A stretch of DNA of 54,837 nucleotides, filler included. It is 4 parts of 4 records of this genome, joined end to end, with 100 filler letters (N's around TTAATTAATTAA, not from the genome) between each part and the next. Parts side by side here need not be neighbours in the genome. Positions count along the whole stretch, not along the records: positions 1 to 9,089 come from SRR33789315_124; 3 more parts are not named here. The stretch is one strand, 5' to 3'. The position numbers and the translations under genes are program-made. Below are positions 1 to 48,790 of this stretch, piece by piece. The notes under the pieces were generated by a model. The model worked only from the letters and a program-made list of their open reading frames with translations, ran no database searches and had not been told where the DNA came from. The stretch's first letter is position 1, and each line of letters opens with the position of its first letter.

Positions 1-24
1 AGTTCATGCCCATGCTGGGCGTAC
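1..24 (-). mobile_element. 5' end of a group IIC (attC-targeting) intron; remainder lies outside the window
   Basis: Minus strand reads ...TTTTTGT|GTACGCCCAGCATGGGCATGAACT. This resembles the GUGYGCCCGGCAUGGG start of class IIC introns, follows a TTGT (IBS1-like) 5' exon end and sits at the R'' end of an attC-like hairpin. Confidence 0.7.
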
Positions 25-76
25 ACAAAAACTTGAAGTTGGATGGCACTACGTGCCACTACTTAAGTCGTTAATG
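25..76 (+). mobile_element. integron attC-like recombination site, interrupted at R'' and degenerate
   Basis: AC-AAAAA-CTTGAAGT (L'', one extra base) ... TGGCAC-TAC-GTGCCA hairpin ... ACTTAAG (L') -TC- GTTAATG (R'-like). The L'-R' spacer is shorter than canonical. Confidence 0.55.
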
Positions 77-84
77 CATTAATG

Positions 85-137
85 AGACACCCATTGTAAC
101 AATTGTCAAAAAAATTATCGAATTACAGTGGGTGTCT
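85..137. repeat. 15-bp inverted repeat (REP-like hairpin)
   Basis: AGACACCCATTGTAA (85-99) pairs with TTACAGTGGGTGTCT (123-137), 1 mismatch. Confidence 0.7.
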
Positions 138-186
138 TCGCAATTCTCCCTTATTCCCGCAATTTTCTTCGCAATTTCTATTCGCT

Positions 187-310
187 GTCCCTAAGTTAAT
201 GGCGGCTCCCATAAGCCATCTCGCTGTCGAAAACTGATATAGATATGATTATCACCGTATCCGCTGTCTCTTTCGCCATCCCATATAATGTAAGACTCAT
301 TTGGAGCGCT
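187..310 (-). pseudogene. remnant of a PD40/WD40-like (TolB-type) beta-propeller protein
   Basis: Minus strand translates APNESYIIWDGERDSGYGDNHIYISFRQRDGLW, then after a frameshift GAAINLG. No start codon or intact ORF. Confidence 0.5.
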
Positions 311-464
311 ATTCCAAATCAAACTATGATTTAGTGACTGATTACTAGCCGCAAAATTAATGACTGAAATAAGGTTAAGAACGAAGTCAGTGCATTGACT
401 CTCGGCATAATTGTGTTGCTAGTGTTAGTCGACAAATTTAAATTTAAATTTAATTTACTCTTCA

Positions 465-496
465 TGTAAAAAAATCCCCAAACATTTACATAACCC
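465..496 (+). promoter_or_regulatory. palindromic operator/promoter motif, copy 1 (TGTAAA-N14-TTTACA)
   Basis: TGTAAAAAAATCCCCAAACATTTACATAACCC, 26/32 identical to the copy at 4269-4300, just upstream of the first module gene. Confidence 0.65.
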
Positions 497-523
497 CTTC
501 TACTACATCATTGGAGTTGGGTT

Positions 524-1081
524 ATGAAAATAAATATACACAAATTAAATCACTTAAGGCCGTTATTAGCTGCGACATTTGCTCTGTCGGTTACTGCCTG
601 TTCGAGTACTTCAGACTATCAGCGGCCGGTGAGTATTGTGGTTCAGGAACCGCAGCGTCCAATGAGTATTATTTCTCAGGACTGCCAGTCACAAGCCACT
701 AATATTGCAAATTACGCAGAAACATCTGAGGTGGCAGTTCAATACCTTACCGCTGCGCGGGCTTTACAAAGTTGTGTTAATAGCCCTTTGCCCGAAACCT
801 TGAATACTGATCAAGCGCAGCAATTGATGCATTTAATGGCCAGTGTGACGTTTAATTATATTAAAGGCGGTGATGTTAGCGCTGCTTACCAACAATTACA
901 GAAATTTGAACAACAGTTTCCTCAACAGGATTTGTATTTTGCTGATTATAGTTCGTTTCTTGATACCGCAAATGCACTGTTACAAGGGGCTCAATTGTCC
1001 TCTCGACAGCTAGCCAGTTTAAATATTAGTCGAGAGCTGCGTGATGAGTTGCAACGTCAGCACTATTGGTTAAGTCATTAA
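524..1081 (+). CDS. putative outer-membrane lipoprotein, helical (possibly TPR-like)
   Basis: Signal peptide with lipobox LSVTA-C26, Ser at +2; GGAG RBS upstream; 185 aa. Confidence 0.75.
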   Translation: MKINIHKLNHLRPLLAATFALSVTACSSTSDYQRPVSIVVQEPQRPMSIISQDCQSQATNIANYAETSEVAVQYLTAARALQSCVNSPLPETLNTDQAQQLMHLMASVTFNYIKGGDVSAAYQQLQKFEQQFPQQDLYFADYSSFLDTANALLQGAQLSSRQLASLNISRELRDELQRQHYWLSH

Positions 1082-1090
1082 GGAGGCGCT

Positions 1091-1969
1091 ATGAAACTCA
1101 TACCTAAATCTTTCTATCTGGCTATTTTTGTGAGCCTTGGAATGGTCACAATTATATCTCCAACCAAAGCTTTTGCCGCAGCCCCAAGTGATTGGCAGCC
1201 TGTGGCGAGTGACAAACTTATTACTTTGCCAGCCAATATAATTGAAAAACGCATCGAGCAGGATTTTAGTGCCTCACCCATGGCGTCTCGGTTAGCCGAA
1301 ATTGATGAACAAATGCAAAATAGTACTCAACGCATTCAGGCATTGCAGAAGGATGAGCAAAAAGCAGAAGGAGAGGGTCTTGATAACCTTCAATATGAAT
1401 TAGTGCAGGAAAAATCTGCCTACTTAGATCAACTGCAAGAAAGCCATCAACTGCGTAAACAAGCCTTAATTAAAAAACAGCGTTTATATGAAGACGTGCT
1501 AGTTCAGTTTCGTAACCAACATGCTGGTGTTGATAGTCAGGTTAGAATTCAAATCAAACGACAACAGCAAGATGCACTGAGCCGAATGGAATCAGTCATG
1601 GCGCAAGTTGACCAAAACTTAATGCATAGTGGCTATCAGAATGCTTCTCCATACGCTGACGAATATGCCAGTAACTTGGCTCAAATTGAGCAGCTCAAAA
1701 CCAAAATCAATCAACACAAAGCCAATGCTGCACCGATGATAGATGGTGCTGAAGTCAGTTCAGAAGAGTATATCCGCCAGTTGTTACACGATGCTTCGAT
1801 GCACCATTCTTTGCTTGATCAAGAAGGACTAATGTTGAGCTATATGGCGCGTTTGGTCGCCCTAGATGCCCAAGCTCTGGAATACAAAATTGCCTACGGT
1901 GACGAAGATATTAAAGCGACTAAACCACAGGTTGCTAGGGCCAGTAAGGCCGTTGATCTGTTTTTATAA
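1091..1969 (+). CDS. exported coiled-coil protein of unknown function
   Basis: Signal peptide ending AFA-A; long Q/E/L/K heptad-rich helices; AGGAGG RBS. Confidence 0.75.
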   Translation: MKLIPKSFYLAIFVSLGMVTIISPTKAFAAAPSDWQPVASDKLITLPANIIEKRIEQDFSASPMASRLAEIDEQMQNSTQRIQALQKDEQKAEGEGLDNLQYELVQEKSAYLDQLQESHQLRKQALIKKQRLYEDVLVQFRNQHAGVDSQVRIQIKRQQQDALSRMESVMAQVDQNLMHSGYQNASPYADEYASNLAQIEQLKTKINQHKANAAPMIDGAEVSSEEYIRQLLHDASMHHSLLDQEGLMLSYMARLVALDAQALEYKIAYGDEDIKATKPQVARASKAVDLFL

Positions 1970-1980
1970 GGAGTAACACA

Positions 1981-2376
1981 ATGATACGTTTACATGCAAA
2001 AAAATGGCTTTTAGCTTCTATGTTATTGGTGGCTTTTAGTAGCCAAGGGAGTGCCACATTTAGTTTAGAAAATTTGGAGCGTGAGCGAGCTGCATTATTA
2101 AATATATTGCTAGATAAAAATTTAAGTGTTGAGCAACGCATACAAAAACAAACCTCTATTTATCGCCGTTTGGTGGATGTTGAGCGCATGGTATTAAGGG
2201 ATGAACGCATCGCCAACGGCGACAAAACTTTAATTAAAAGAGCATTTGCTAATTATGACCTAACCTTTTTGGTGCATGCCAGTGCTGAGAAAAATGCGGC
2301 CCCGCTGCCCCATTGGTTAAATCAAATGGGTATTTCGCAACAGGCTATTGATAAAGGCCGAGTAGGGCAACGCTAA
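1981..2376 (+). CDS. small exported protein of unknown function
   Basis: Signal peptide (KKWLLASMLLVAFSSQGSA); AGGAG RBS; stop overlaps next start (TAATG). Confidence 0.75.
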   Translation: MIRLHAKKWLLASMLLVAFSSQGSATFSLENLERERAALLNILLDKNLSVEQRIQKQTSIYRRLVDVERMVLRDERIANGDKTLIKRAFANYDLTFLVHASAEKNAAPLPHWLNQMGISQQAIDKGRVGQR

Positions 2377-2873
2377 TGAAAGCCTTAACCCTAAGCAGAA
2401 TGTTAAGCAGGGGGCTATTTATTTTAGCTGGATTTGCCCTTGTGTTTCTGGCTGGTCTTAGCTTTGTTACCGATATGCCATTAGCCGTGATGCTTAACTG
2501 GGCACAAAAGATGTTTGGCTGGAGCTTTGTGGGTTTGTTTTCAATGTTATTGGCGCTTGGTGTCATAGCCGCATGCAAATTGCGAGACACTGGTCGCGCT
2601 TCATTGTGGTTTGAAGTAGGACAGCATGCAGCTAATGGTATTGCCACGCTCGCCCTGACCTTTACTTTACTCGGTATCAGTTTAGGAATTGGCTCGTTGT
2701 CTGAGCAAACCCTTTCCCCTGAGACAATTCAGAACATTATTGGTGATATGACACGGCAGTTTTCTATGGCATTTATGACCACTGTAGTGGGCTTGCCTGC
2801 CGCTAGTTTTATTAGAGCATGGGTGGGAATTCAATATCAAACCACCTTAACTTATCAGGAGATAAGTCAATGA
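2376..2873 (+). CDS. MotA/TolQ/ExbB-family proton-channel-like membrane protein (short form)
   Basis: About 4 TM segments; LALTFTLLGISLGI and FSMAFMTTVVGL align with the two Thr-containing channel helices of ExbB/TolQ. Confidence 0.7.
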   Translation: MKALTLSRMLSRGLFILAGFALVFLAGLSFVTDMPLAVMLNWAQKMFGWSFVGLFSMLLALGVIAACKLRDTGRASLWFEVGQHAANGIATLALTFTLLGISLGIGSLSEQTLSPETIQNIIGDMTRQFSMAFMTTVVGLPAASFIRAWVGIQYQTTLTYQEISQ

Positions 2874-3334
2874 AAAAGACCTTATTTGTACTTATAGTCA
2901 TAGCGGCAGGGATTTACTTGGCCAGCCAAACAGACAGCGGCCAAGCATTGGTTAAAGGCTATTTACCCAAGCAGAAGATTGACCAAGCTGCGGAACAATT
3001 GCTGCAGCAAGTGGAGTCACGGATCCAAGATTTTGCTGATCAGCAGGCTGACAAGCAGCAAGAAAAGTTAACAAAATTAGAGCTACGTATTGTGCAATTG
3101 GAACAACAAAAACCGAATGCAAATATTTTGACGAATCAACCCGCCAGTGAAGTTGTGGTTCAAACTAAAGAGTCTGAACTACCCGTTGAAATTGCACCTG
3201 AAGTGCCGGTCTATTCAACGTTTAGTAAGCAGCCAGCAGACAACATTCAATTGCAAGCTAAAAAGCAAGCCTTGCTACAAGACATCGCATCACGGATGGA
3301 GTTGGTATCGGTCCAAGCAATTAATAGCCAGTAA
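2870..3334 (+). CDS. membrane-anchored periplasmic coiled-coil protein
   Basis: Likely start ATG 2870 (ATGA overlap, AGGAG RBS); MKKTLFVLIVIAAGIYL anchor; Q-rich coiled coil and P/E-rich linker. Confidence 0.7.
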   Translation: MKKTLFVLIVIAAGIYLASQTDSGQALVKGYLPKQKIDQAAEQLLQQVESRIQDFADQQADKQQEKLTKLELRIVQLEQQKPNANILTNQPASEVVVQTKESELPVEIAPEVPVYSTFSKQPADNIQLQAKKQALLQDIASRMELVSVQAINSQ

Positions 3335-3355
3335 TTAGAGAAACGGGGCGACACT

Positions 3356-4243
3356 ATGTTTGTGTTGATTAAACGCGGCGCATTGCTCATTGGAATTGTT
3401 ATTGCTGTTATTGGTTTTTGGCAGCTAAGCTCTTGGTGGTATTGGCTTGCGGAGCTTGAGCAGTTGCGGCTGCCGCCTATTATTGAGCAGGCTTTGGATA
3501 AACCCTTAACACCAACATACATGGCACACGCTAATGCCATGTCGATAGTTAGCCCAGTGCCCTTGCCAGCACCCCAATTACATCGAGTATCTCAAAATTT
3601 ACCTACGGCCCAAGTCAGCGAATCTAAAGCAAAGTCATCCAGCATAGACTCCAAGTCATTGGGTGGTAAAGCTAAGGGGCTTGAGGTTAAGGGCCCTGAC
3701 AGTATTGTGCCAGGAGCTAACAATAAAAACAACGACAGCGCGGCAATTAAACCTGCTTTGAAAAGACAGAACGTCAGTCATGCAGATATAGATAATGTAT
3801 ACCAACAACTTCATTCAAATCAGAGTTTAAATATACAGTTGGTTTGGCCTCGTGAAGAGAAGCAACGAGAACAGATTATCGAGCATCTATATCAATGCAC
3901 CGCAATGCAATTTGCTGTTTTGAAGGATTCACAGCTTATTTATGTCTCACCTACACGTTATGTAAAAACGTCTCAGTGGTTACGTGTGGCCCAAGGCGCC
4001 TTGAGTCAAAGGGAAAAAAAATGGCTGCAAGGTCAAAACGGCACACCTGTAAGGTTGTTTGCTCAGTCTATTGACTGGAAATTGTCGCGGATGATTGCTC
4101 GTAACTTAAAAAATACTACACTGCGCTCCTTGCGAGCTGACTATATGCTTACAACTTCAGGACTTATGTTGACCAATATTAATTTGAATGGACTACATAT
4201 TAATGAAAATTGGCTACTCGATGGAACACCAAAAAACTGTTAA
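3356..4243 (+). CDS. single-pass membrane protein with long P/S/K-rich linker and C-terminal globular domain (TonB/TolA-like architecture)
   Basis: N-terminal TM, low-complexity linker (PVPLPAP...SKAKSSSIDSK), folded C-terminal ~150 aa. The TonB likeness is architectural only. Confidence 0.6.
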   Translation: MFVLIKRGALLIGIVIAVIGFWQLSSWWYWLAELEQLRLPPIIEQALDKPLTPTYMAHANAMSIVSPVPLPAPQLHRVSQNLPTAQVSESKAKSSSIDSKSLGGKAKGLEVKGPDSIVPGANNKNNDSAAIKPALKRQNVSHADIDNVYQQLHSNQSLNIQLVWPREEKQREQIIEHLYQCTAMQFAVLKDSQLIYVSPTRYVKTSQWLRVAQGALSQREKKWLQGQNGTPVRLFAQSIDWKLSRMIARNLKNTTLRSLRADYMLTTSGLMLTNINLNGLHINENWLLDGTPKNC

Positions 4244-4268
4244 ATGCTGATTTTAAGCACTAATGAAC

Positions 4269-4300
4269 TGCAAATTTATCCTCAAACATTTGCATAACCC
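4269..4300 (+). promoter_or_regulatory. palindromic operator/promoter motif, copy 2 (TGCAAA-N14-TTTGCA)
   Basis: TGCAAATTTATCCTCAAACATTTGCATAACCC in the gap upstream of the ExbD-like gene. Confidence 0.65.
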
Positions 4301-4315
4301 TTTATGGAGGACTCT

Positions 4316-4744
4316 ATGCAAATACATCAGATAAACGATACAAGTACGCAAGCTATGACAGAAGTCGCTTTGGGTTTAAGCATGGCGTTTTTTGCTCTAT
4401 TAATTCTAGCTTTAATGTCGTTTCAACTACCCAGTCTAAAAACCGACGACAACACTGAATTATCAGGGGCTGATAAGGTTAAAGTTGAGCATAATTCAAC
4501 GCTGGCTTCAACAAGTGAGTCTGATAAGCAATATTTACTTTACTTTCGCGAGCAATTTTACGATTTACAGTTGCTCCCAGTGGTTATTGGTGAAATTCCT
4601 GAGGAGCAAGATTTGATTGTGGCGGTGGAGAGTTCGACGTCCTTTGCCAATGTTATGAGTTTGCGTCAAAAAATAAATCGCACCAACCTGTCTATAACAG
4701 TCATTACACAAGAATGGCTTGGGTTGTTGGAGCAAAAACGGTGA
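4316..4744 (+). CDS. ExbD/TolR-like membrane protein
   Basis: Probable start 4316 after GGAGG; single N-terminal TM (AMTEVALGLSMAFFALLILAL); C-terminal LIVAVESSTSFANVMSL resembles the ExbD periplasmic fold motif. Confidence 0.65.
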   Translation: MQIHQINDTSTQAMTEVALGLSMAFFALLILALMSFQLPSLKTDDNTELSGADKVKVEHNSTLASTSESDKQYLLYFREQFYDLQLLPVVIGEIPEEQDLIVAVESSTSFANVMSLRQKINRTNLSITVITQEWLGLLEQKR

Positions 4745-5517
4745 TCCGTAGTTTATGTTTAGTAATGTTTTTATGGCATTTGCCGGTTTTTGCCGGTGCA
4801 TCTACTGATTCTGAACAAACAGCGGCAATAAAAAAAATGTTAGTTGATGAAGCGCTGTTACAAAACTTGCCTCCTTCATTAATTCTAGCGGTCGCCAAGG
4901 TTGAATCAGATTTCAATCCTATGGCTATAAGCCATGTAGGTGCCAAAGGAATCATGCAAATTATGCCAGAAACTGCAGTGAAAGAATTTGGTGTAAGTAG
5001 TGAAGCGCTTTACGATCCGCAAACTAATATTCGTGTCGGTGTGCGTTTTATTAAACATCTGTTAGGTCAATACAATGGCAAAGTGGATATTGCGCTTTCC
5101 CATTATAACGGTGGCTCTGGGGTACGTATATCTAAGGGTACAACCAGAATCATTCCCAGCACTCAATCCTATGTCAAAAAGGTACAACACTATGCCCTAA
5201 GCTACCAACGTGCTGGTTATGACAGAGATTATAAAGGACAGTTGGCTAGGCTATCTGAGCGACAACAAATAATAGGACAAGAAGGACTCAACACTAAAAC
5301 CAGTGGTAATAACACTGTGGAGATGATTGAACCTGATGATTTTGCAGATGAACGTATTGATGTATTAAAAGATATTCAGTTGCATAACTTAACCCGCGAA
5401 GCTGGCCCACGTTTAAATGCGTCTATGGCCGTTCAGCAGAAAGAACAACGACGAGAGACTAAGTCGCAAGCTGATAAGCGTCGCTTGGTTCTAGGTTGGG
5501 AAGAAATATTTAATTAG
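4741..5517 (+). CDS. SLT-domain lytic transglycosylase
   Basis: Catalytic VESDF, GIMQIMP and ALSHYNGG motifs; signal peptide after a GTG start overlapping the upstream stop (GTGA). Confidence 0.9.
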   Translation: MIRSLCLVMFLWHLPVFAGASTDSEQTAAIKKMLVDEALLQNLPPSLILAVAKVESDFNPMAISHVGAKGIMQIMPETAVKEFGVSSEALYDPQTNIRVGVRFIKHLLGQYNGKVDIALSHYNGGSGVRISKGTTRIIPSTQSYVKKVQHYALSYQRAGYDRDYKGQLARLSERQQIIGQEGLNTKTSGNNTVEMIEPDDFADERIDVLKDIQLHNLTREAGPRLNASMAVQQKEQRRETKSQADKRRLVLGWEEIFN

Positions 5518-5595
5518 AACAAATACATAAGTTTAGGCTTGATAATTTCATTTTTTAAATTACATTGAAGCGACGCAAAAATTGCTGGAGTTTTG

Positions 5596-7221
5596 ATGTC
5601 TACAATTGTGGGTTATGGGGTTAGTGATACCCTAAAAAGCCTATTCGAGGGATTGCGACAGACGACAAAAGAAGATGGCGTAACGCCTGTTTATCACGAC
5701 AAAGATGTAAGAGAACTCGCCAAACATCTGTGTTGTCGCAATTATGGCTTTTTGTGTTGGGAGTTGCTTCACTTATATTGGGCCGTGGTTCACGCATATC
5801 CATCGTTTCGAGGGCAAAATAGCTGGTTGAACTTTTTTTGGATTGAGCGCCCTTTTTCCGCTAAAACCTTTAGATCGGCATTTAGTCAGGGCGCCAGCTG
5901 GCAAGGTGGAGAAGTCAAAATGGAGAGTGAGGCCTTAAGTATCGTTATCGGCCCCGCTAAATTTGCTATTTCTCCAACAAGAATCAGTTTGTTAGCGACT
6001 TTTAACGAATTTTTACTCAGTGTCGATTCAGGGTTAATCCAAGGTTTTCAAACTGAATTAATTCATTCTGATATAAATAAAGTTAAACAGCTTTCTAATC
6101 AATTGCAGACGGTACTATATGAGTTTTTGAAAACACATATACCTGTCGCCCAACAGCAAACACGCTTTCGGTATTTTGAAAATTGGCTGAAAAATGCCGA
6201 TTTAAGCCCAGAAAATGTAAATGATGGGGATATTTTTCAGTTTTGGGTTAGAGCAAGTGAAGACCCAGACGCAGAAAGTTATAAACGCTTTCATACCGCA
6301 TTTTTTGATGTTTTGGATAGTTTGACGGCCTTTAAAGTCGTGGACTCGCAAAATGGTGCGGCGTATGCGCAAACCATTGGGGGTGACTTCCAAAAGGGGG
6401 AATTAGACGCGGGTGATTGGCAAGAAAGCTTTGCTACAGACAGCAGTAATGAAATGTCAGTGAGTAACTTGGCAAATTTAGCATTTGAAGATGTTGATGA
6501 AAACTTTGATGTAAATAGTTTGAGTAAAACACCTAAGTGCCTTTCACAAAATGAAATCAGCGCCATGCTTTATCCAATGACTTACTCGGTTTATGCAGGC
6601 AGATTTTTACTTTCTTTTTTACGTCTTTATGTGTTTGACAAGTGGCAAGCTGTGATTATTCAGGCAATGCGCAAATCGAAATCATCTGTATATGAAAAAT
6701 TACAACAGCCTCCATCAGACACTTATGGCACTTATCTTCAATTATTAGATTCATGTAATGAGTCATTGGTTTTTTCACGAGACTGCTTGCTGCATATATT
6801 ATTGCAGATTGAACCTAAAGACGCCTGTTCAGAACTACTGCAAGGACTGTCCAAAAGCACATTAGCTGATATTGCTTTGTGGATGCATGAAAGTGACACT
6901 CAATCTGACATGAATCATTTAGCCAAAAAACTTATTATGGGTTTTCCTGAATTTCGTCGGGCGGTAGAAAATTGTGAAATAGCGTACAGAAAAAATAATA
7001 AAGCAGGTTTTAAGCAGCTAACGGAAGCTATTGACCCAGAAATTTATTTAGAAACCTTAAATAAGGTTAATAAAACCACAGCTAAACTTGACAGCTTTAG
7101 ACTTAAAATTAAGCAGTTTTTGATTGATGATCTTTCATTGGAAACAAAATTTTCCTCAGATGTTTGCATATTCACTAGTAGATTTAATTCGCTTTATGGA
7201 GACAATAATGCAGGGGAATAA
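5596..7221 (+). CDS. large cytoplasmic helical protein of unknown function
   Basis: About 540-aa ORF with GGAG RBS before ATG 5596; no signal peptide, TM or catalytic motif that I recognise. Confidence 0.75.
   Translation: MSTIVGYGVSDTLKSLFEGLRQTTKEDGVTPVYHDKDVRELAKHLCCRNYGFLCWELLHLYWAVVHAYPSFRGQNSWLNFFWIERPFSAKTFRSAFSQGASWQGGEVKMESEALSIVIGPAKFAISPTRISLLATFNEFLLSVDSGLIQGFQTELIHSDINKVKQLSNQLQTVLYEFLKTHIPVAQQQTRFRYFENWLKNADLSPENVNDGDIFQFWVRASEDPDAESYKRFHTAFFDVLDSLTAFKVVDSQNGAAYAQTIGGDFQKGELDAGDWQESFATDSSNEMSVSNLANLAFEDVDENFDVNSLSKTPKCLSQNEISAMLYPMTYSVYAGRFLLSFLRLYVFDKWQAVIIQAMRKSKSSVYEKLQQPPSDTYGTYLQLLDSCNESLVFSRDCLLHILLQIEPKDACSELLQGLSKSTLADIALWMHESDTQSDMNHLAKKLIMGFPEFRRAVENCEIAYRKNNKAGFKQLTEAIDPEIYLETLNKVNKTTAKLDSFRLKIKQFLIDDLSLETKFSSDVCIFTSRFNSLYGDNNAGE
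7143..7174 (+). promoter_or_regulatory. degenerate third copy of the module motif
   Basis: AACAAAATTTTCCTCAGATGTTTGCATATTCA, 22/32 identical to copy 2, about 35 bp upstream of ATG 7208. Confidence 0.45.
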
Positions 7222-7741
7222 ACGTAAGTTGGCAGAGGCTATATTTTCTGTACGTACGTCTTATCGTGAACTAACAACAGCTCAGAATGACGCTGCCATC
7301 GTATTTAATGATCTATTATGTTTGGTTAATGGTTTTCGAGAAGAAAATGCTGAGTATATACTCCAGCAAATAAATCAGGATGTTAAACTGTTTAGTCAAT
7401 ATCGCGATTTGGTGCGTCAACGTCACTATGATCAAAGTCTTTCGTTGGCTGCTGCCAGTTCAGGCTCTGATTTACCTGTTAGACAAACAGATAAATTCGT
7501 TTTGAAATTTAAACGGGATAGAATGGTCCCAAGTCAAATATTCGCTATTTTGTTAATTACCCATCCCTCAGAGCGACACAGTGTCAGTGGGGTAGTGATC
7601 AATATATTTAGCCAAGATATCTGTGAACGAATACATTTTCCTGCGGTAATTGACGGTCATTCTCAATTATTATTTGAACAGGATGATCCAAAATTGAAAC
7701 TGTTACTGGATGCCAACGCTGAAATTAGTATCATGCGCTAG
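7208..7741 (+). CDS. cytoplasmic two-domain protein of unknown function (candidate protease substrate/anti-factor)
   Basis: Start 7208 with GGAG RBS; helical N-half, LAAASS linker, beta-rich C-half. Confidence 0.65.
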   Translation: MQGNKRKLAEAIFSVRTSYRELTTAQNDAAIVFNDLLCLVNGFREENAEYILQQINQDVKLFSQYRDLVRQRHYDQSLSLAAASSGSDLPVRQTDKFVLKFKRDRMVPSQIFAILLITHPSERHSVSGVVINIFSQDICERIHFPAVIDGHSQLLFEQDDPKLKLLLDANAEISIMR

Positions 7742-7767
7742 CGATGGGTCAAAAAGGAATAAATGGG

Positions 7768-8982
7768 ATGAAACTGCATATATTTGTCGCAACGACGCAG
7801 GGGCTTGTTGCCGTTCAAAAAATTTATGAGCAGGATCCTGAAATTGGTTCAGTGGTATCGATAAATGGTACCGCAACAATTTCGCCTATTACCCAAGCCT
7901 ATAAGAGCTTTGTTAATAAAGGCGCCGGAATTATAGCCGCTGACTTTGGCGGCTCATCTTATCGGGTTAATATCAGTGGACAAATCGATCAGGGAAATAG
8001 TTGGCAACTTGGTTTTTATCTCGCCCATGCGGTTAATGTACAAGGGCTTTTAGGCAATGGTGACGTTACAAACGACGACATGGTAATAGTGGCCACAGGT
8101 GAAATAAATACCAGTGAACGGAATGTTCTGGCGGTAGAGGAGGTTCCTCTAAAATTAAAAAAGGCCAATCAAATAGCTTGTCATTGGCCGCAATCGGTAA
8201 AGAAACTGTTTTTTATTCCTGCAGAAAATAAATTATCCGTTGTAAATGAAAATTCATTTTTAGAATTAAAATTTATTCGTGTTCTTGATGAGGTTTTTTC
8301 ATACTTTCCTATTGCTGATATTTCAAAACCTAAGATGAACAAAGCGAAATATTATGCCTTGCTTGGACTTATGGGAGTAGCCACACTATTCGCTACTTAT
8401 CAATTGAATTGGCTTGGATTACCTGACAGTCCTAAAGAGTTTAAGCAAGTTTTAGCTCCGCAGTTTATGAGACAAGCCGACAGTTCTATTCCTAAGTCAA
8501 CAACAGGTAATCCTATGCTACCTAGTGTTATCCCGCAAAAAAGTTCGGCTGAGAAGCCATTAGCACAATTGACCTTAGCTTATGGCATCGATAGAGGATG
8601 TGATAACAACAAAAGAACCTATCTAAAAGTAGCCGCGAGCTTGTCGCGGTTTGATACCGCAGAATATAGTGGCTTGTGTGAAATTATTTTTTCAGGCTTA
8701 GCTAATGTTTCAACCGTGATTGCCATTAATCGACACTCGCATCGCTATATATTCGCCACAAAATCAAATCAACAATTTATCCTGCCCGCACCTTCTGTTG
8801 CCGCAGAGTATTTAATTATTGCCCTGGAAAAAGACTTAAGTGATGCGTCAAAACAACAGTTGCGCTCATACTTATTTAATTTGCCCGCTCAAATGGTAAT
8901 TTCAACAGAAAGTATTAAGGAGATTTCATTGTTTAAAGGCAATCAACTGCAAATCTACAAACATCAGTTAAAAAATATTTAA
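7768..8982 (+). CDS. membrane-anchored Lon-type (S16-like) Ser-Lys protease domain plus TM plus putative periplasmic domain
   Basis: IDQGNSWQLG...VATGEI...VLAVEEVPLK...FFIPAEN parallels Lon PKDGPSAG...TGEI...LPIGGLKEK...VLIPFEN. TM YYALLGLMGVATLFATY; no AAA+ motifs. Start could be 7744. Confidence 0.65.
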   Translation: MKLHIFVATTQGLVAVQKIYEQDPEIGSVVSINGTATISPITQAYKSFVNKGAGIIAADFGGSSYRVNISGQIDQGNSWQLGFYLAHAVNVQGLLGNGDVTNDDMVIVATGEINTSERNVLAVEEVPLKLKKANQIACHWPQSVKKLFFIPAENKLSVVNENSFLELKFIRVLDEVFSYFPIADISKPKMNKAKYYALLGLMGVATLFATYQLNWLGLPDSPKEFKQVLAPQFMRQADSSIPKSTTGNPMLPSVIPQKSSAEKPLAQLTLAYGIDRGCDNNKRTYLKVAASLSRFDTAEYSGLCEIIFSGLANVSTVIAINRHSHRYIFATKSNQQFILPAPSVAAEYLIIALEKDLSDASKQQLRSYLFNLPAQMVISTESIKEISLFKGNQLQIYKHQLKNI

Positions 8983-9061
8983 AGGTTTTGGTAGTACTGA
9001 ATGGTTTTTATTTGAATATTACAAATATTCAAGGAACGAACGTGATTACGAAAAGGAGTAT

Positions 9062-9089
9062 TGGTACAACCGAGTGGACTCGAACCACC
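9062..9089 (-). tRNA. 3' portion of a tRNA (likely tRNA-Val), or an att duplicate of it; truncated by contig end
   Basis: Minus strand GGTGGTTCGAGTCCACTCGGTTGTACCA gives T-arm, acceptor strand and CCA; resembles the tRNA-Val(GAC) 3' end. Anticodon not visible. Confidence 0.8.
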
Positions 9090-9189
9090 NNNNNNNNNNN
9101 NNNNNNNNNNNNNNNNNNNNNNNNNNNNNNNNNTTAATTAATTAANNNNNNNNNNNNNNNNNNNNNNNNNNNNNNNNNNNNNNNNNNNN
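9090..9189. other. artificial contig linker
   Basis: N44-TTAATTAATTAA-N44 (stops in all six frames). Confidence 0.97.
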
Positions 9190-9421: not shown

Positions 9422-12163
9422 ATGAAAAATACCAATTATCTAAAACAAGAACTCTACGAACTTATTAAAACCGATGAGTCAATTTTTGATTTTATTCAGG
9501 AGTATTCTCTAGATGGCTTGTGGTATTGGGATTTGGAGCAGCCCGAAGAAGAATGGATGAACCCTAAATTTTGGTCTGTTTTAGGCTATGACCACCGAGA
9601 AATGCCGCATAAAGCATCGGCCTGGCAAGATATTATCCACCCTGAGGATTTAACACTTGCCACAGAAAACTTTATCAAGCATTGCGAAAACCCAGATTAT
9701 CCTTACGATCAAACGGTACGCTATATTCATAAAAATGGCTCTACCGTATGGATCAGGTGCCGTGGTTTGGCTGTCAGGGATAAGCATGGCAAACCACTAA
9801 GAATGTTAGGGGCTCATCAAGACATTACAGACATTAAAAACAACGAATTACTGCTTCAGATGAAGACTGCCCAACTTCGAAACGCCCAACACGTTTCCAA
9901 AGTAGGTAGCTGGGAATTGGATTTAAAAACCAATGAGGTGGTCTGGACAGAAGAACTTTACAAAATGTATGGCTTTAATCCTGCACTTTCCCCACCACCT
10001 TACCCCGAACAAAAGAAGCTGTTCACTCCGAAAAGTTGGGCGGTTTTAACGTCTTCTGTCGACCTTGCTAGAGAGCAAGGCATTCCTTATGAATTAGAAC
10101 TTGCAACCATTCGCAAAGATGGAAGCCATGGATGGATGTGGGTCCGTGGAGAGGCGATATTTGATGAAAATAACAATATCATTGGCTTAAGGGGGGTGAC
10201 GCAAGATATCACCGAGAAAAAGATACTTGAATTGGAAAAAGAAGCATTAATCAAACGTTTAAATTATGCTTTGGACGCGTCAGGTGACGGCATTTGGGAT
10301 TGGACACCTGCGAATGGTACCACCGTTTTTTCGAAGGCATGGATAGAAATGCTGGATTATGAGGTGGGCGAGCTTGCCTCCCTAGCAAGTGAATGGTCTG
10401 ATAGATTACACCCCGATGATGCTGAGTGGGTTTTTACGGCAATTAGTAAAGTCACCCAGACGCCTGAAAATGGCGACACATTTAGCCACGAATACCGATT
10501 TAGAAATAAAGCAGGCGACTATTTGTGGATACTGAACAAAGCAAAAGTTGTCGAGCGAAATGAACAAGGAGAAGCAAGCAGAGTAGTCGGTACGCACATC
10601 AACATTACCGAACAAAAAAAATCTGAGCAAGCACTCAAAGATAGTGAGCTACGCCTAAGTTTTGCTACAAAAGCAGGGGGTGTAGGAGTTTGGGATTGGG
10701 ATATTGTAAAGAATATTCTGACATGGGATGAACAAATGTTTGCTTTATATGGCGTAAAAAGGGAACAATTTTCTAATGCGTATGAAGCTTGGTATAACGG
10801 CATATTTGAAACTGACAGAGAAAGAAGTAATACAGAAATTGAATTAGCGATAAAGGGCGAGAAAGAATTTAACACAGAGTTTCGAGTCCAACATCCAAAC
10901 GGTGAGATCAGAAATATTAGAGCACTTGGCATAGTAGTAAGAGATCAAGATGACAAAGCGATTAGAATGATTGGTACCAATTGGGATATCACCAAAGAAA
11001 AAGAAGCCTTAAGACAACTCGAAGAAGCAAAAAAACAAGCAGAAGCCGCCAGCAAAGCAAAATCAGAGTTTCTTGCTAATATGAGCCACGAAATACGCAC
11101 CCCCATGAACGGTATTTATGGCACCTTACAACTACTCAAAGTTGAGCAACTATCAGAAAAAGGCAGAGGCTTTATCAACAAAGCCGAGTATTCCTGTAAA
11201 AGCCTGTTAACTATCATTAACGATATTTTAGATTTTTCAAAAATAGAAGCAGGCCAGATCGATTTTGAAAACATACCTTTTAGTCTGGAAGGTGTAATTG
11301 AAAAAATTTCATCAGACATGCTGCCACTGGCAATAGATAAGAATATTGTCTATGAGGTGAACAACCACCTCACACACGATATGTGGATAGGAGACCCTGT
11401 AAGGGTCGGCCAAGTGATGCTCAATTTAATCTCTAATGCGCTTAAGTTTACGGCACAAGGCAAGGTAACGCTGTCGTTATCTTCACAGCAGCAAGCTTCA
11501 AACGACATTATTGTAATCGAGATAGCAGATACTGGCATTGGTATAGATAAAAAGGCGATGGACAAGCTATTTTTACGCTTTAGCCAAGCGGATCAGTCCA
11601 TTACCCGAAAATATGGCGGCACAGGTCTTGGTCTGCCGATTACTCAATCCTTAGTGCATTTGATGGAAGGGCAAATATCGGTCGACAGTGAGATTAACAA
11701 AGGCACAATTATTCGGGTCACTTTACCGCTAAAAAAAGCACAAGCCTCCGCCGACGACTTGGTATTTACACCAACCCCCGAAAGCAGACTGAATCTGACA
11801 GGCAAACATATTCTCATTGCGGAAGATAACGCCATTAACCAAGTCATAATCGAAGCCATGCTGGAACCCTTAAACCCCACACTGACTATTGTCGCTAATG
11901 GCGAAGAGGCAGTGCAAAGTGCATTGGCTAAACGCCCCGATTTGATTTTGATGGACATCCAAATGCCAGTAAAAGATGGTGTAACCGCTTGCAAAGAGAT
12001 ACTGGCACATATGCCTGACCTACCTATTGTCGCATTAACTGCCAATGTTATGGCCCAAGATATAGACACTTATTTAGAGGCGGGCTTTGTCGCGCATGTG
12101 GGTAAACCCTATGAAATATCTGTGCTGGAAGAAAAGCTGAAACAGCTACTGCTTGATAGCTAA
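9422..12163 (+). CDS. hybrid sensor histidine kinase (4 PAS/PAC, HisKA, HATPase_c, REC)
   Basis: Repeated G-x-W-D/E-W PAS starts; FLANMSHEIRTPMNG; NALKFT; DTGIGI; GGTGLGL; receiver AEDN...LMDIQMP...K. Confidence 0.95.
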   Translation: MKNTNYLKQELYELIKTDESIFDFIQEYSLDGLWYWDLEQPEEEWMNPKFWSVLGYDHREMPHKASAWQDIIHPEDLTLATENFIKHCENPDYPYDQTVRYIHKNGSTVWIRCRGLAVRDKHGKPLRMLGAHQDITDIKNNELLLQMKTAQLRNAQHVSKVGSWELDLKTNEVVWTEELYKMYGFNPALSPPPYPEQKKLFTPKSWAVLTSSVDLAREQGIPYELELATIRKDGSHGWMWVRGEAIFDENNNIIGLRGVTQDITEKKILELEKEALIKRLNYALDASGDGIWDWTPANGTTVFSKAWIEMLDYEVGELASLASEWSDRLHPDDAEWVFTAISKVTQTPENGDTFSHEYRFRNKAGDYLWILNKAKVVERNEQGEASRVVGTHINITEQKKSEQALKDSELRLSFATKAGGVGVWDWDIVKNILTWDEQMFALYGVKREQFSNAYEAWYNGIFETDRERSNTEIELAIKGEKEFNTEFRVQHPNGEIRNIRALGIVVRDQDDKAIRMIGTNWDITKEKEALRQLEEAKKQAEAASKAKSEFLANMSHEIRTPMNGIYGTLQLLKVEQLSEKGRGFINKAEYSCKSLLTIINDILDFSKIEAGQIDFENIPFSLEGVIEKISSDMLPLAIDKNIVYEVNNHLTHDMWIGDPVRVGQVMLNLISNALKFTAQGKVTLSLSSQQQASNDIIVIEIADTGIGIDKKAMDKLFLRFSQADQSITRKYGGTGLGLPITQSLVHLMEGQISVDSEINKGTIIRVTLPLKKAQASADDLVFTPTPESRLNLTGKHILIAEDNAINQVIIEAMLEPLNPTLTIVANGEEAVQSALAKRPDLILMDIQMPVKDGVTACKEILAHMPDLPIVALTANVMAQDIDTYLEAGFVAHVGKPYEISVLEEKLKQLLLDS

Positions 12164-33069: not shown

Positions 33070-33169
33070 NNNNNNNNNNNNNNNNNNNNNNNNNNNNNNN
33101 NNNNNNNNNNNNNTTAATTAATTAANNNNNNNNNNNNNNNNNNNNNNNNNNNNNNNNNNNNNNNNNNNN
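33070..33169. other. artificial contig linker
   Basis: N44-TTAATTAATTAA-N44. Confidence 0.97.
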
Positions 33170-48690: not shown

Positions 48691-48790
48691 NNNNNNNNNN
48701 NNNNNNNNNNNNNNNNNNNNNNNNNNNNNNNNNNTTAATTAATTAANNNNNNNNNNNNNNNNNNNNNNNNNNNNNNNNNNNNNNNNNNNN
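48691..48790. other. artificial contig linker
   Basis: N44-TTAATTAATTAA-N44. Confidence 0.97.

Follow-up and report, generated by a model that had tools for sequence, protein, structure and literature searches.

An undescribed, co-inherited set of eleven genes for predicted envelope proteins and a putative membrane-anchored Lon-type peptidase in marine bacteria

The 54.8-kb stretch of DNA analyzed in this study, here called the window, contains a run of 11 open reading frames (ORFs) on the + strand of contig SRR33789315_124 from a marine bacterium. The ORFs are located at positions 524-8982 and are separated by tight or overlapping junctions. We refer to these genes as g1 to g11, and the features of the locus, including two copies of a cis element, are as follows (aa, amino acids; nt, nucleotides; TM, transmembrane).

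465..499, + strand: copy 1 of the cis element, some 25 nt upstream of g1
524..1081, + strand: g1, lipoprotein of 185 aa with the lipobox VTAC followed by SST
1091..1969, + strand: g2, exported, helix-rich protein of 292 aa; the best conserved member, with a mean column identity of 45%
1981..2376, + strand: g3, 131 aa, with a signal-like segment at the N terminus
2376..2873, + strand: g4, polytopic membrane protein of 165 aa with the invariant helices TLALTFTLLGISLGIG and FSxAFMTTVVGLP
2870..3334, + strand: g5, bitopic protein of about 154 aa with one TM segment and then a helical region rich in Gln and Glu; open reading frame from 2819
3356..4243, + strand: g6, bitopic protein of 295 aa with an N-terminal TM segment, an LPxxP linker and a C-terminal domain; Cys181 and Cys295 are invariant
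4269..4303, + strand: cis element copy 2, directly upstream of g7
4304..4744, + strand: g7, bitopic protein of 146 aa; Glu20, within the TM segment (MTEVALGLSMAFF), is invariant, and the C-terminal domain is small
4714..5517, + strand: g8, predicted exported SLT lytic transglycosylase of 267 aa; alternative start at GTG 4741
5593..7221, + strand: g9, cytoplasmic, mostly helical protein of 541-542 aa
7208..7741, + strand: g10, cytoplasmic protein of about 177 aa with a Q-[AV]-A-A-S-[ST] motif; the ORF is open from 7124
7744..8982, + strand: g11, 412 aa, likely start at 7768; Lon-fold domain (10-190), TM helix (200-223), linker and beta-sandwich (271-412)

A preliminary description of this DNA had reported 11 co-oriented genes with short or overlapping junctions, and these are present in the sequence. 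The g3/g4 junction is TAATG (2376) and the g4/g5 junction is ATGA, with g5 then starting at the ATG at 2870 and not at 2819. The start of g8 overlaps the end of g7, possibly as GTGA (GTG 4741, with ATG 4714 as the alternative), and the start of g10 overlaps the end of g9. GGAG-type ribosome sites are located 5-8 nt 5' of the ATG at the g1/g2 and g2/g3 junctions. The likely true starts are 2870 for g5, ATG 5596 for g9, ATG 7208 for g10 and ATG 7768 for g11.

Topologies were assigned by eye and from hydropathy, with the central TM helix of g11 taken from a structure model. Signal-like segments were recognized at the N termini of g2 and g3, while g5, g6 and g7 appear to be bitopic, g8 exported, and g9 and g10 cytoplasmic. 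The lipobox of g1 is present in most of the 31 ORFs listed for this family, and g1 is presumably an outer-membrane-type lipoprotein by the +2 rule. Both the outer membrane lipoprotein and the mixture of exported coiled-coil and bitopic proteins proposed previously are thus supported. In searches against Pfam, NCBIfam, PADLOC and PHROGs, a significant match was obtained only for g8 and for none of the remaining 10 of the 11 proteins, consistent with the earlier claim that no named system matches. No housekeeping gene was found among the 11 with Pfam and NCBIfam, as had also been stated, and neither database identified an OmpA domain in g1. Sub-significant PADLOC matches were obtained to ZorA on g4 (E 0.026) and to a 2TM effector on g5 (E 0.021), and searches of PDB sequences with profiles of g2, g4, g6, g7 and g10 returned chance-level rows only. 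The match of g8 is to PF01464 (SLT), with an E-value of 8.3e-25 and 87 bits versus a cut-off of 21.3. The motifs VES..NP (VESDFNP), GIMQI and YNGG are visible in g8, of which we take VESDFNP to be the Glu-Ser motif of SLT/GH23-type transglycosylases. The transglycosylase of the preliminary description is thereby recovered, and g8 is predicted to be an SLT peptidoglycan lyase.

We examined the distribution of the genes in other genomes. A single-sequence search of 90% clusters returned 25 relatives of g9, all from marine Alteromonadaceae-type bacteria, and an initial contig scan of genomes with g11 alone gave no loci. A scan of one genome per species with a g9 alignment identified 43 loci, which together with the window make 44. 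The 43 loci come from Paraglaciecola, Alteromonas, Aestuariibacter, Glaciecola, Brumicola, Colwellia, Thalassotalea, Pseudoalteromonas and some metagenome-assembled genomes, and the carriers include harmless cultured strains such as Paraglaciecola hydrolytica S66, Pseudoalteromonas denitrificans DSM 6059 and Brumicola pallidula DSM 14239. Hidden Markov models made from the window proteins were used to search for the families in the 44 loci, in which g9 was found 44 times, g10 and g11 43 times each, g7 39 times and g8 32 times, followed by g2 and g3 (31 each), g1 and g4 (30 each), g6 (29) and g5 (28). All 11 families were present in 16 of the 44 loci, and at least 10 families in 26.

The genes fall into three modules, A (g1-g6), B (g7-g8) and C (g9-g11), which occur in the orders BCA (17 loci), BC (11), ABC (9) and BAC (4). 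Module A was located outside the fetched flank, more than 10 kb away, in 12 of the 44 loci, and g4 was found once elsewhere in all five such genomes tested. Among 121 genomes sampled from the family of the genome that carries locus L002, g4, g7, g9 and the N-terminal domain of g11 match the same seven genomes and none of the other 114; in each of the seven carriers every match is single-copy and all are on one contig. In these tests the three modules always appear together, and the 11 genes are one co-inherited set, which is rare and mobile within the family. The 16 complete loci and the shared 7 of 121 genomes rule out a lack of co-occurrence, which the preliminary description had named as the finding that would speak against its proposal of a single set.

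In the 37 of 53 flanking ORFs that were scanned, from 10 loci, the flanks vary by genus and encode common metabolic or housekeeping functions apart from one IS481 transposase, and neither defence nor prophage genes were identified. The copy in one of the seven carrier genomes (G090:C185:1435-19711), with weak and partial matches to g9 (90-335), the g11 N-terminal domain (E 2.8e-8) and g7 (90-151) next to an intact g4, may be decaying. A variant in Glaciecola and Brumicola (L031, L033-L036, L038-L042) has no SLT gene, with an ORF of 150-176 aa in its place in five loci, and contains an additional FHA protein (600-790 aa) before g9. Genes for a divergent prolyl oligopeptidase, for a MobA-like NTP transferase or for an ABC transporter that includes an M1 peptidase domain lie close to some of the Glaciecola/Brumicola loci. 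Two loci contain split genes, either broken genes or assembly indels: g9 and g10 are each divided into two ORFs in L037 (10174-12171), as are g1 and g10 in L035 (11625-12304 and 13920-14391).

The two 35-nt copies of the cis element, at 465-499 and 4269-4303, share 80% identity, and their 18-nt core, CAAACATTTRCATAACCC, occurs in just these two places in the window (0.21 expected; two or more occurrences in 0 of 100 shuffles). Each copy holds a short inverted repeat (TGTAAA..TTTACA and TGCAAAT..ATTTGCA), in agreement with the shared upstream palindrome reported earlier. A separate 15-nt inverted repeat, 93% complementary and with a 23-nt loop, is located at 85-137, about 390 nt upstream of g1. 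The exact 18-nt core was not matched in 93 loci, and a degenerate search was needed. The element is also present in distant relatives: a loose pattern matched 20 of 30 g1 leaders and 20 of 38 g7 leaders, as compared to only 1-3 of the 28-44 leaders of g2, g4, g6, g9, g10 and g11.

A position weight matrix built from 39 sites in g1 and g7 leaders has the consensus AAAAAAnCnCTCWAAnnnTTTYATAACC. Applied to both strands of the 44 loci (1.66 Mb), it gave 46 matches, of which 46 were on the coding strand, leaving the reverse strand empty. These matches were located before g1 (21) and g7 (14), which is partly circular because training sites are included, and before g8 (5), accessory genes (5) and elsewhere (1), to which, as to the empty reverse strand, the circularity does not extend. 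The copies before g8 lie inside g7, about 45 nt 5' of the g8 start, where they encode the conserved peptide QINHPxLSIT; a constraint at the DNA level may shape this peptide. The element was observed inside g7 at L002 (about 9140-9175), L004, L006, L009 and L011, and g7 in loci without g8 has the peptide KFKDFDLSLT instead, with no element there. Promoters of the sigma-70, sigma-54 and sigma-28 types were rejected by eye, since their consensus sequences do not fit the spacing of the element. The shared, oriented element argues for common control of the modules by a shared factor, and the 11 genes are probably co-regulated. It speaks for common control only, and the self-regulation suggested in the preliminary description is not borne out.

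The structure model of g11 obtained with AlphaFold2 (predicted local distance difference test, pLDDT, 85) runs from an N-terminal alpha/beta domain (10-190) through a TM helix (200-223) and a disordered linker to a C-terminal domain rich in beta structure. With Foldseek, the model matches the proteolytic domain of Lon (1xhk_A, E 3.5e-6, probability 1.0). In the VIA alignment, the top match is 1xhk_B (Z 15.4, root-mean-square deviation 2.5, 156 residues aligned), rows 1-17 are all Lon-like (domains of Lon, RadA, ComM, BrxL and CalpL), and further fold matches include CalpL (Z 10.4) and VP4 proteases (Z 7.5-9.1). The C-terminal domain matches generic beta-sandwiches only (Z 5-7). Eight residues (Ser86, Trp87, Gln88, Thr118, Gly119, Lys137, Cys286 and Cys312) are invariant in the 29 full-length homologs, and the Ser, the Lys and the TG pair in 31 of 31 sequences. 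In a comparison by hhalign to Lon C-terminal domains from five carrier genomes (probability 75.7%, 95 columns), the invariant Ser (GNSWQ) is paired with that of DGPSAG, as is the invariant Lys with the second Lys of LKEKLL, 43 residues later. We take the Ser of DGPSAG and the Lys 43 residues on to be the catalytic dyad of Lon.

These matches uphold the membrane Lon-type protease of the preliminary description. We conclude that g11 is a new single-pass membrane protein and putative peptidase, with a predicted cytoplasmic Lon-fold domain that keeps the Ser-Lys dyad. The domain is placed in the cytoplasm because no signal peptide precedes it, and the Cys286/Cys312 pair fits a periplasmic location of the C-terminal domain. 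The family of the N-terminal domain comprises 956 clusters at 50% identity with E-values up to 0.001, of which 435 have E-values up to 1e-30; the domain is N-terminal in all of the best 150 clusters listed.

The two predicted cytoplasmic proteins are encoded directly upstream of g11. The model of g9 (pLDDT 81) is mostly helical. Weak rows to Pyrin/Death-fold six-helix bundles recur at residues 404-470 (Z 3.6-4.3), and residues 180-263 gave weak rows to small DNA-binding helical domains, both under the noise for helical models. No sigma or anti-sigma match was obtained for the two proteins (Pfam for both, VIA for g9, the Atlas language-model feature search for g10). The Atlas search with g10 returned unnamed clusters only, and the nearest named family, zf-HC2, was rejected as a candidate because its score of 0.79 is at chance level. 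A central Q-[AV]-A-A-S-[ST] motif stands out most in g10: its Ala is kept by 24 of 24 sequences, and 40 of 42 ORFs have a variant of the motif. Signal peptidase, birnavirus VP4 and other Ser-Lys proteases prefer small residues around the site of cleavage. From this preference, the small-residue motif and the VP4 fold matches of g11, we infer by analogy that g10 may be a substrate of g11, with QAAASS as the candidate cleavage site.

Two helices of g4 (TLALTFTLLGISLGIG and FSxAFMTTVVGLP) are invariant among the homologs and resemble the two conserved helices of ExbB/TolQ/MotA. PF01618 gave weak hits to 18 of 30 homologs (best E 0.016), with 0 of 30 reaching the cut-off; one sub-threshold row (E 0.77) lies at the presumed position of the g4 homolog in L023. 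The Atlas search placed g4 with a PF01618 cluster (score 0.89), and two UniRef names label g4 homologs as MotA/TolQ/ExbB. In hhalign comparisons to five ExbB/TolQ/MotA alignments from carrier genomes, the probability was at most 7.1%, with both conserved helices aligned in order. Glu20 of g7 is invariant in 35 of 35 sequences and lies within the sole hydrophobic segment of the protein (MTEVALGLSMAFF). A complex predicted from four copies of g4 and two copies of g7 (residues 1-60), at a stoichiometry other than 5:2 and without controls, had an ipSAE of 0.03, which speaks neither for nor against the pairing. Judged from sequence, g4 is at best a very divergent subunit of the MotA/TolQ/ExbB type, and there is an even or slightly better chance that it forms a divergent MotA/ExbB-like unit with g7 as the acidic partner.

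In 36 of the 44 loci, co-oriented genes of one linked group are located between or beside the modules. Of this group, 23 ORFs encode Hanks kinases that combine PG_binding_1 or PEGA with FGE-sulfatase at the C terminus, and 21 encode exported orphans about 300 aa long; Sel1-repeat and FHA proteins make up the remainder. The N-terminal domain of g11 is fused to a kinase-PG_binding-FGE protein in L017, L020 and L028, to kinase-TonB_C in L019 and to FHA in L023-L025, L029 and L043. Among the best 150 clusters of the g11 type, 17 representatives are longer than 500 aa, of which three have FHA, three a kinase and one FGE-sulfatase alone.

The limits of the locus on its contig need to be kept in mind in comparisons with these relatives. 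The contig spans positions 1-9089 of the window, and the locus occupies nearly all of it. Linkers at 9090-9189, 33070-33169 and 48691-48790, with runs of N flanking TTAATTAATTAA (six-frame stops), show that the window consists of four joined contigs, and gene neighbourhoods across the linkers are therefore not real. Since the contig ends at 9089, directly after g11, the 11-gene limit is an assembly limit on the left and on the right, and further genes left of g1 or right of g11 may be missing from the contig. The hybrid sensor kinase at 9422-12163, which combines four PAS folds with HisKA, HATPase and receiver domains, is located on the next contig, with no shown link to the locus.

We propose, tentatively and with chances slightly short of even, that the set encodes a sensor that spans the envelope and has regulated proteolysis as its output, with Thr phosphorylation layered on in most relatives. 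In this model, the periplasm would be bridged by g1 in the outer membrane, by exported g2 and g3 and by the bitopic proteins g5 and g6, which would pass through an opening made by g8, and g4 and g7, with its invariant membrane Glu, would form an ion-conducting unit that is divergent but MotA/ExbB-ExbD-like. Changes of the envelope or the peptidoglycan would be relayed to g11, the protease domain of which would cut the cytoplasmic g10 at QAAASS, and this cleavage would free or alter g9 as the output. Most relatives would have a further input to this node from FHA proteins and from a Hanks kinase whose PG-binding and FGE-sulfatase domains are periplasmic, sometimes as fusions to the Lon domain of g11. 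A more detailed version, a self-contained cascade of a new kind from envelope to cytoplasm, seems improbable as a whole, namely that a periplasm-spanning g1-g8 complex with a divergent ion-conducting unit gates g11 as an ATP-independent protease and that a cut between QAAA and SS frees g9 as a new type of transcription factor, which drives the system's 33-nt promoter element before g1, g7, g8 and accessory genes, with Hanks kinase or FHA domains fused to the same protease domain in the relatives.

Several results weigh against the proteolytic sensor. The likeness of g4 to MotA/ExbB is under every significance threshold (Pfam, hhalign and PDB sequences), and for g7 an ExbD or MotB_plug match was obtained in 0 of 35 homologs, with no hit among PDB sequences. 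The preliminary description had called g4 ExbB/MotA-like, which the sub-threshold PF01618 hits and the Atlas score weakly support and the hhalign and PDB searches do not, and g7 ExbD-like, of which only the topology and the invariant membrane Glu stand and not the homology. Its further claim of a machine energized by the proton motive force is not borne out, and the evidence for an ion motor is weak. The Pfam model Lon_C (PF05362) matches neither g11 nor the g11 homologs in five genomes, the best PDB sequence match of the g11 profile has an E-value of only about 1, and the Lon-fold domains of RadA, ComM and BrxL rank as high in VIA as those of true proteases. No recognizable fold was found for g9 with Foldseek (none at E up to 0.001) or VIA (best Z 4.6), in searches with the model of the whole protein, and the cleavage of g10 rests solely on the motif and on the specificities of Ser-Lys proteases. 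To this must be added the partial circularity of the matrix matches at g1 and g7. Finally, a kinase, FHA or FGE gene is found nowhere in the window, which may be due to the ends of the locus contig. Taken together, the assignments of the lipoprotein, the SLT enzyme and the Lon-type protease are well supported, while the motor reading of g4 and g7 is weak.

The same mechanism could also serve in defence against phages or other invaders, in a Zorya-like manner, if a breach of the envelope at infection were sensed by a MotA-like membrane unit and the parts that face the peptidoglycan, and the protease, kinase and FHA proteins triggered arrest or g9 as an effector. The patchy spread (7 of 121 genomes of one family), the genus-specific flanks with an IS481 transposase beside one locus, and the weak PADLOC matches to ZorA (E 0.026) and the 2TM effector (E 0.021) would be in line with such a role, and kinase/FHA modules and FGE-type domains feature in papers on conflict systems. 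We nevertheless consider defence unlikely: PADLOC and PHROGs gave nothing significant for 10 of the 11 proteins, no defence or prophage genes were seen in the scanned flanks, no nuclease, NADase, pore or other effector is recognizable, and the ZorA tail and the ZorB peptidoglycan-binding domain are absent.

Yet another explanation is a structural envelope machine, such as a Tol-like tether or an apparatus for the assembly or export of a surface structure, in which the protease and the kinase act only as quality control or regulators. This would account for the many exported and envelope parts (g1-g3 and g5-g8, with two exported 300-aa proteins in the relatives), for an SLT enzyme of a kind typical of peptidoglycan-crossing machines, and for the conserved overlap of the g8 start with the g7 end. 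On the other hand, no ATPase, secretin, pilin, usher, TolB/Pal, TonB-dependent receptor or cargo gene was found in the loci scanned, g8 is absent from 9 Glaciecola/Brumicola loci, and the rarity in the family (7 of 121) argues against a core envelope role, so that we regard a structural machine as distinctly unlikely. That three unrelated gene groups are merely adjacent on the contig might be suspected from modules that are apart or reordered in many genomes; in 12 of 44 loci, module A is over 10 kb distant. Against this, markers of all three modules co-occur perfectly in the same 7 of 121 genomes, g4 is present in five of five genomes that lack the adjacency, and the same cis element precedes g1 and g7. 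Chance adjacency is thus very improbable and close to refuted.

If these findings hold, the 956 clusters at 50% identity would represent a new family of membrane-anchored Lon-type proteases, none of which is in Pfam, and Lon-type proteolysis would be joined by domain fusion to Hanks kinase and FHA signalling. The set would then be a multi-part envelope system outside Ton, Tol, Mot, Zorya and the sensor pathway of type VI secretion (T6SS), in which eight of the 11 proteins have no family.

We compared the set to known systems. It is a real, undescribed system with no named match, and no earlier account of the gene set was found in searches of openly available full texts. The gene order and topologies recall ExbB, ExbD and TonB/TolA from Ton and from Tol-Pal, given a polytopic protein, bitopic ones whose linkers are Pro-rich or helical, and an outer membrane lipoprotein, and TonB_C is fused to the g11 homolog in one relative, L019. 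None of the 11 window proteins exceeds the Pfam thresholds for MotA_ExbB, ExbD, TonB_C, TolB or OmpA, no TonB-dependent receptor was identified among them with Pfam and NCBIfam, and ordinary Ton, Tol and Mot sets exist alongside in the carrier genomes. With Zorya, the set shares a putatively MotA-like protein in the membrane, a bitopic partner whose membrane segment holds an acidic residue, other cytoplasmic partners, an orientation towards the peptidoglycan and a patchy distribution. It differs in that g4, with 165 aa, has no long cytoplasmic tail, g7 has no OmpA-like peptidoglycan-binding domain, and ZorC, D, E, F and G are missing, while an outer membrane lipoprotein, exported proteins, an SLT enzyme and a Lon-type protease are additional and the PADLOC match to ZorA is only at E 0.026.

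In the H1-T6SS of P. aeruginosa, the TagQRST-PpkA-Fha1 threonine phosphorylation pathway senses envelope damage with an outer membrane lipoprotein, a periplasmic FGE-type domain, a Hanks kinase and FHA (PMC13713981), and relatives of the locus hold all four kinds of components. Unlike in that pathway, no T6SS genes were seen in the loci, and FGE is fused to the kinase in the relatives. The window contig lacks the kinase, FGE and FHA, and the Lon-type protease, g9 and g10 have no counterpart there. Unlike LonA and LonB (S16), g11 has no AAA+ module, its protease domain is N-terminal with the TM helix after it, and Lon_C is blind to it, whereas the fold and the aligned Ser-Lys dyad are the same. 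The CalpL-CalpT-CalpS system reportedly mediates signalling in type III CRISPR through a Lon-SAVED protease with a cytoplasmic SAVED sensor. The predicted sensor of g11 is not SAVED but a periplasmic beta-sandwich across the membrane (or a kinase/FGE module), and g9 and g10 have no sigma or anti-sigma match. The two systems have in common an ATP-independent Lon-fold protease (CalpL, Z 10.4) that is combined with a sensor domain and accompanied by small neighbours as the likely substrate and output.

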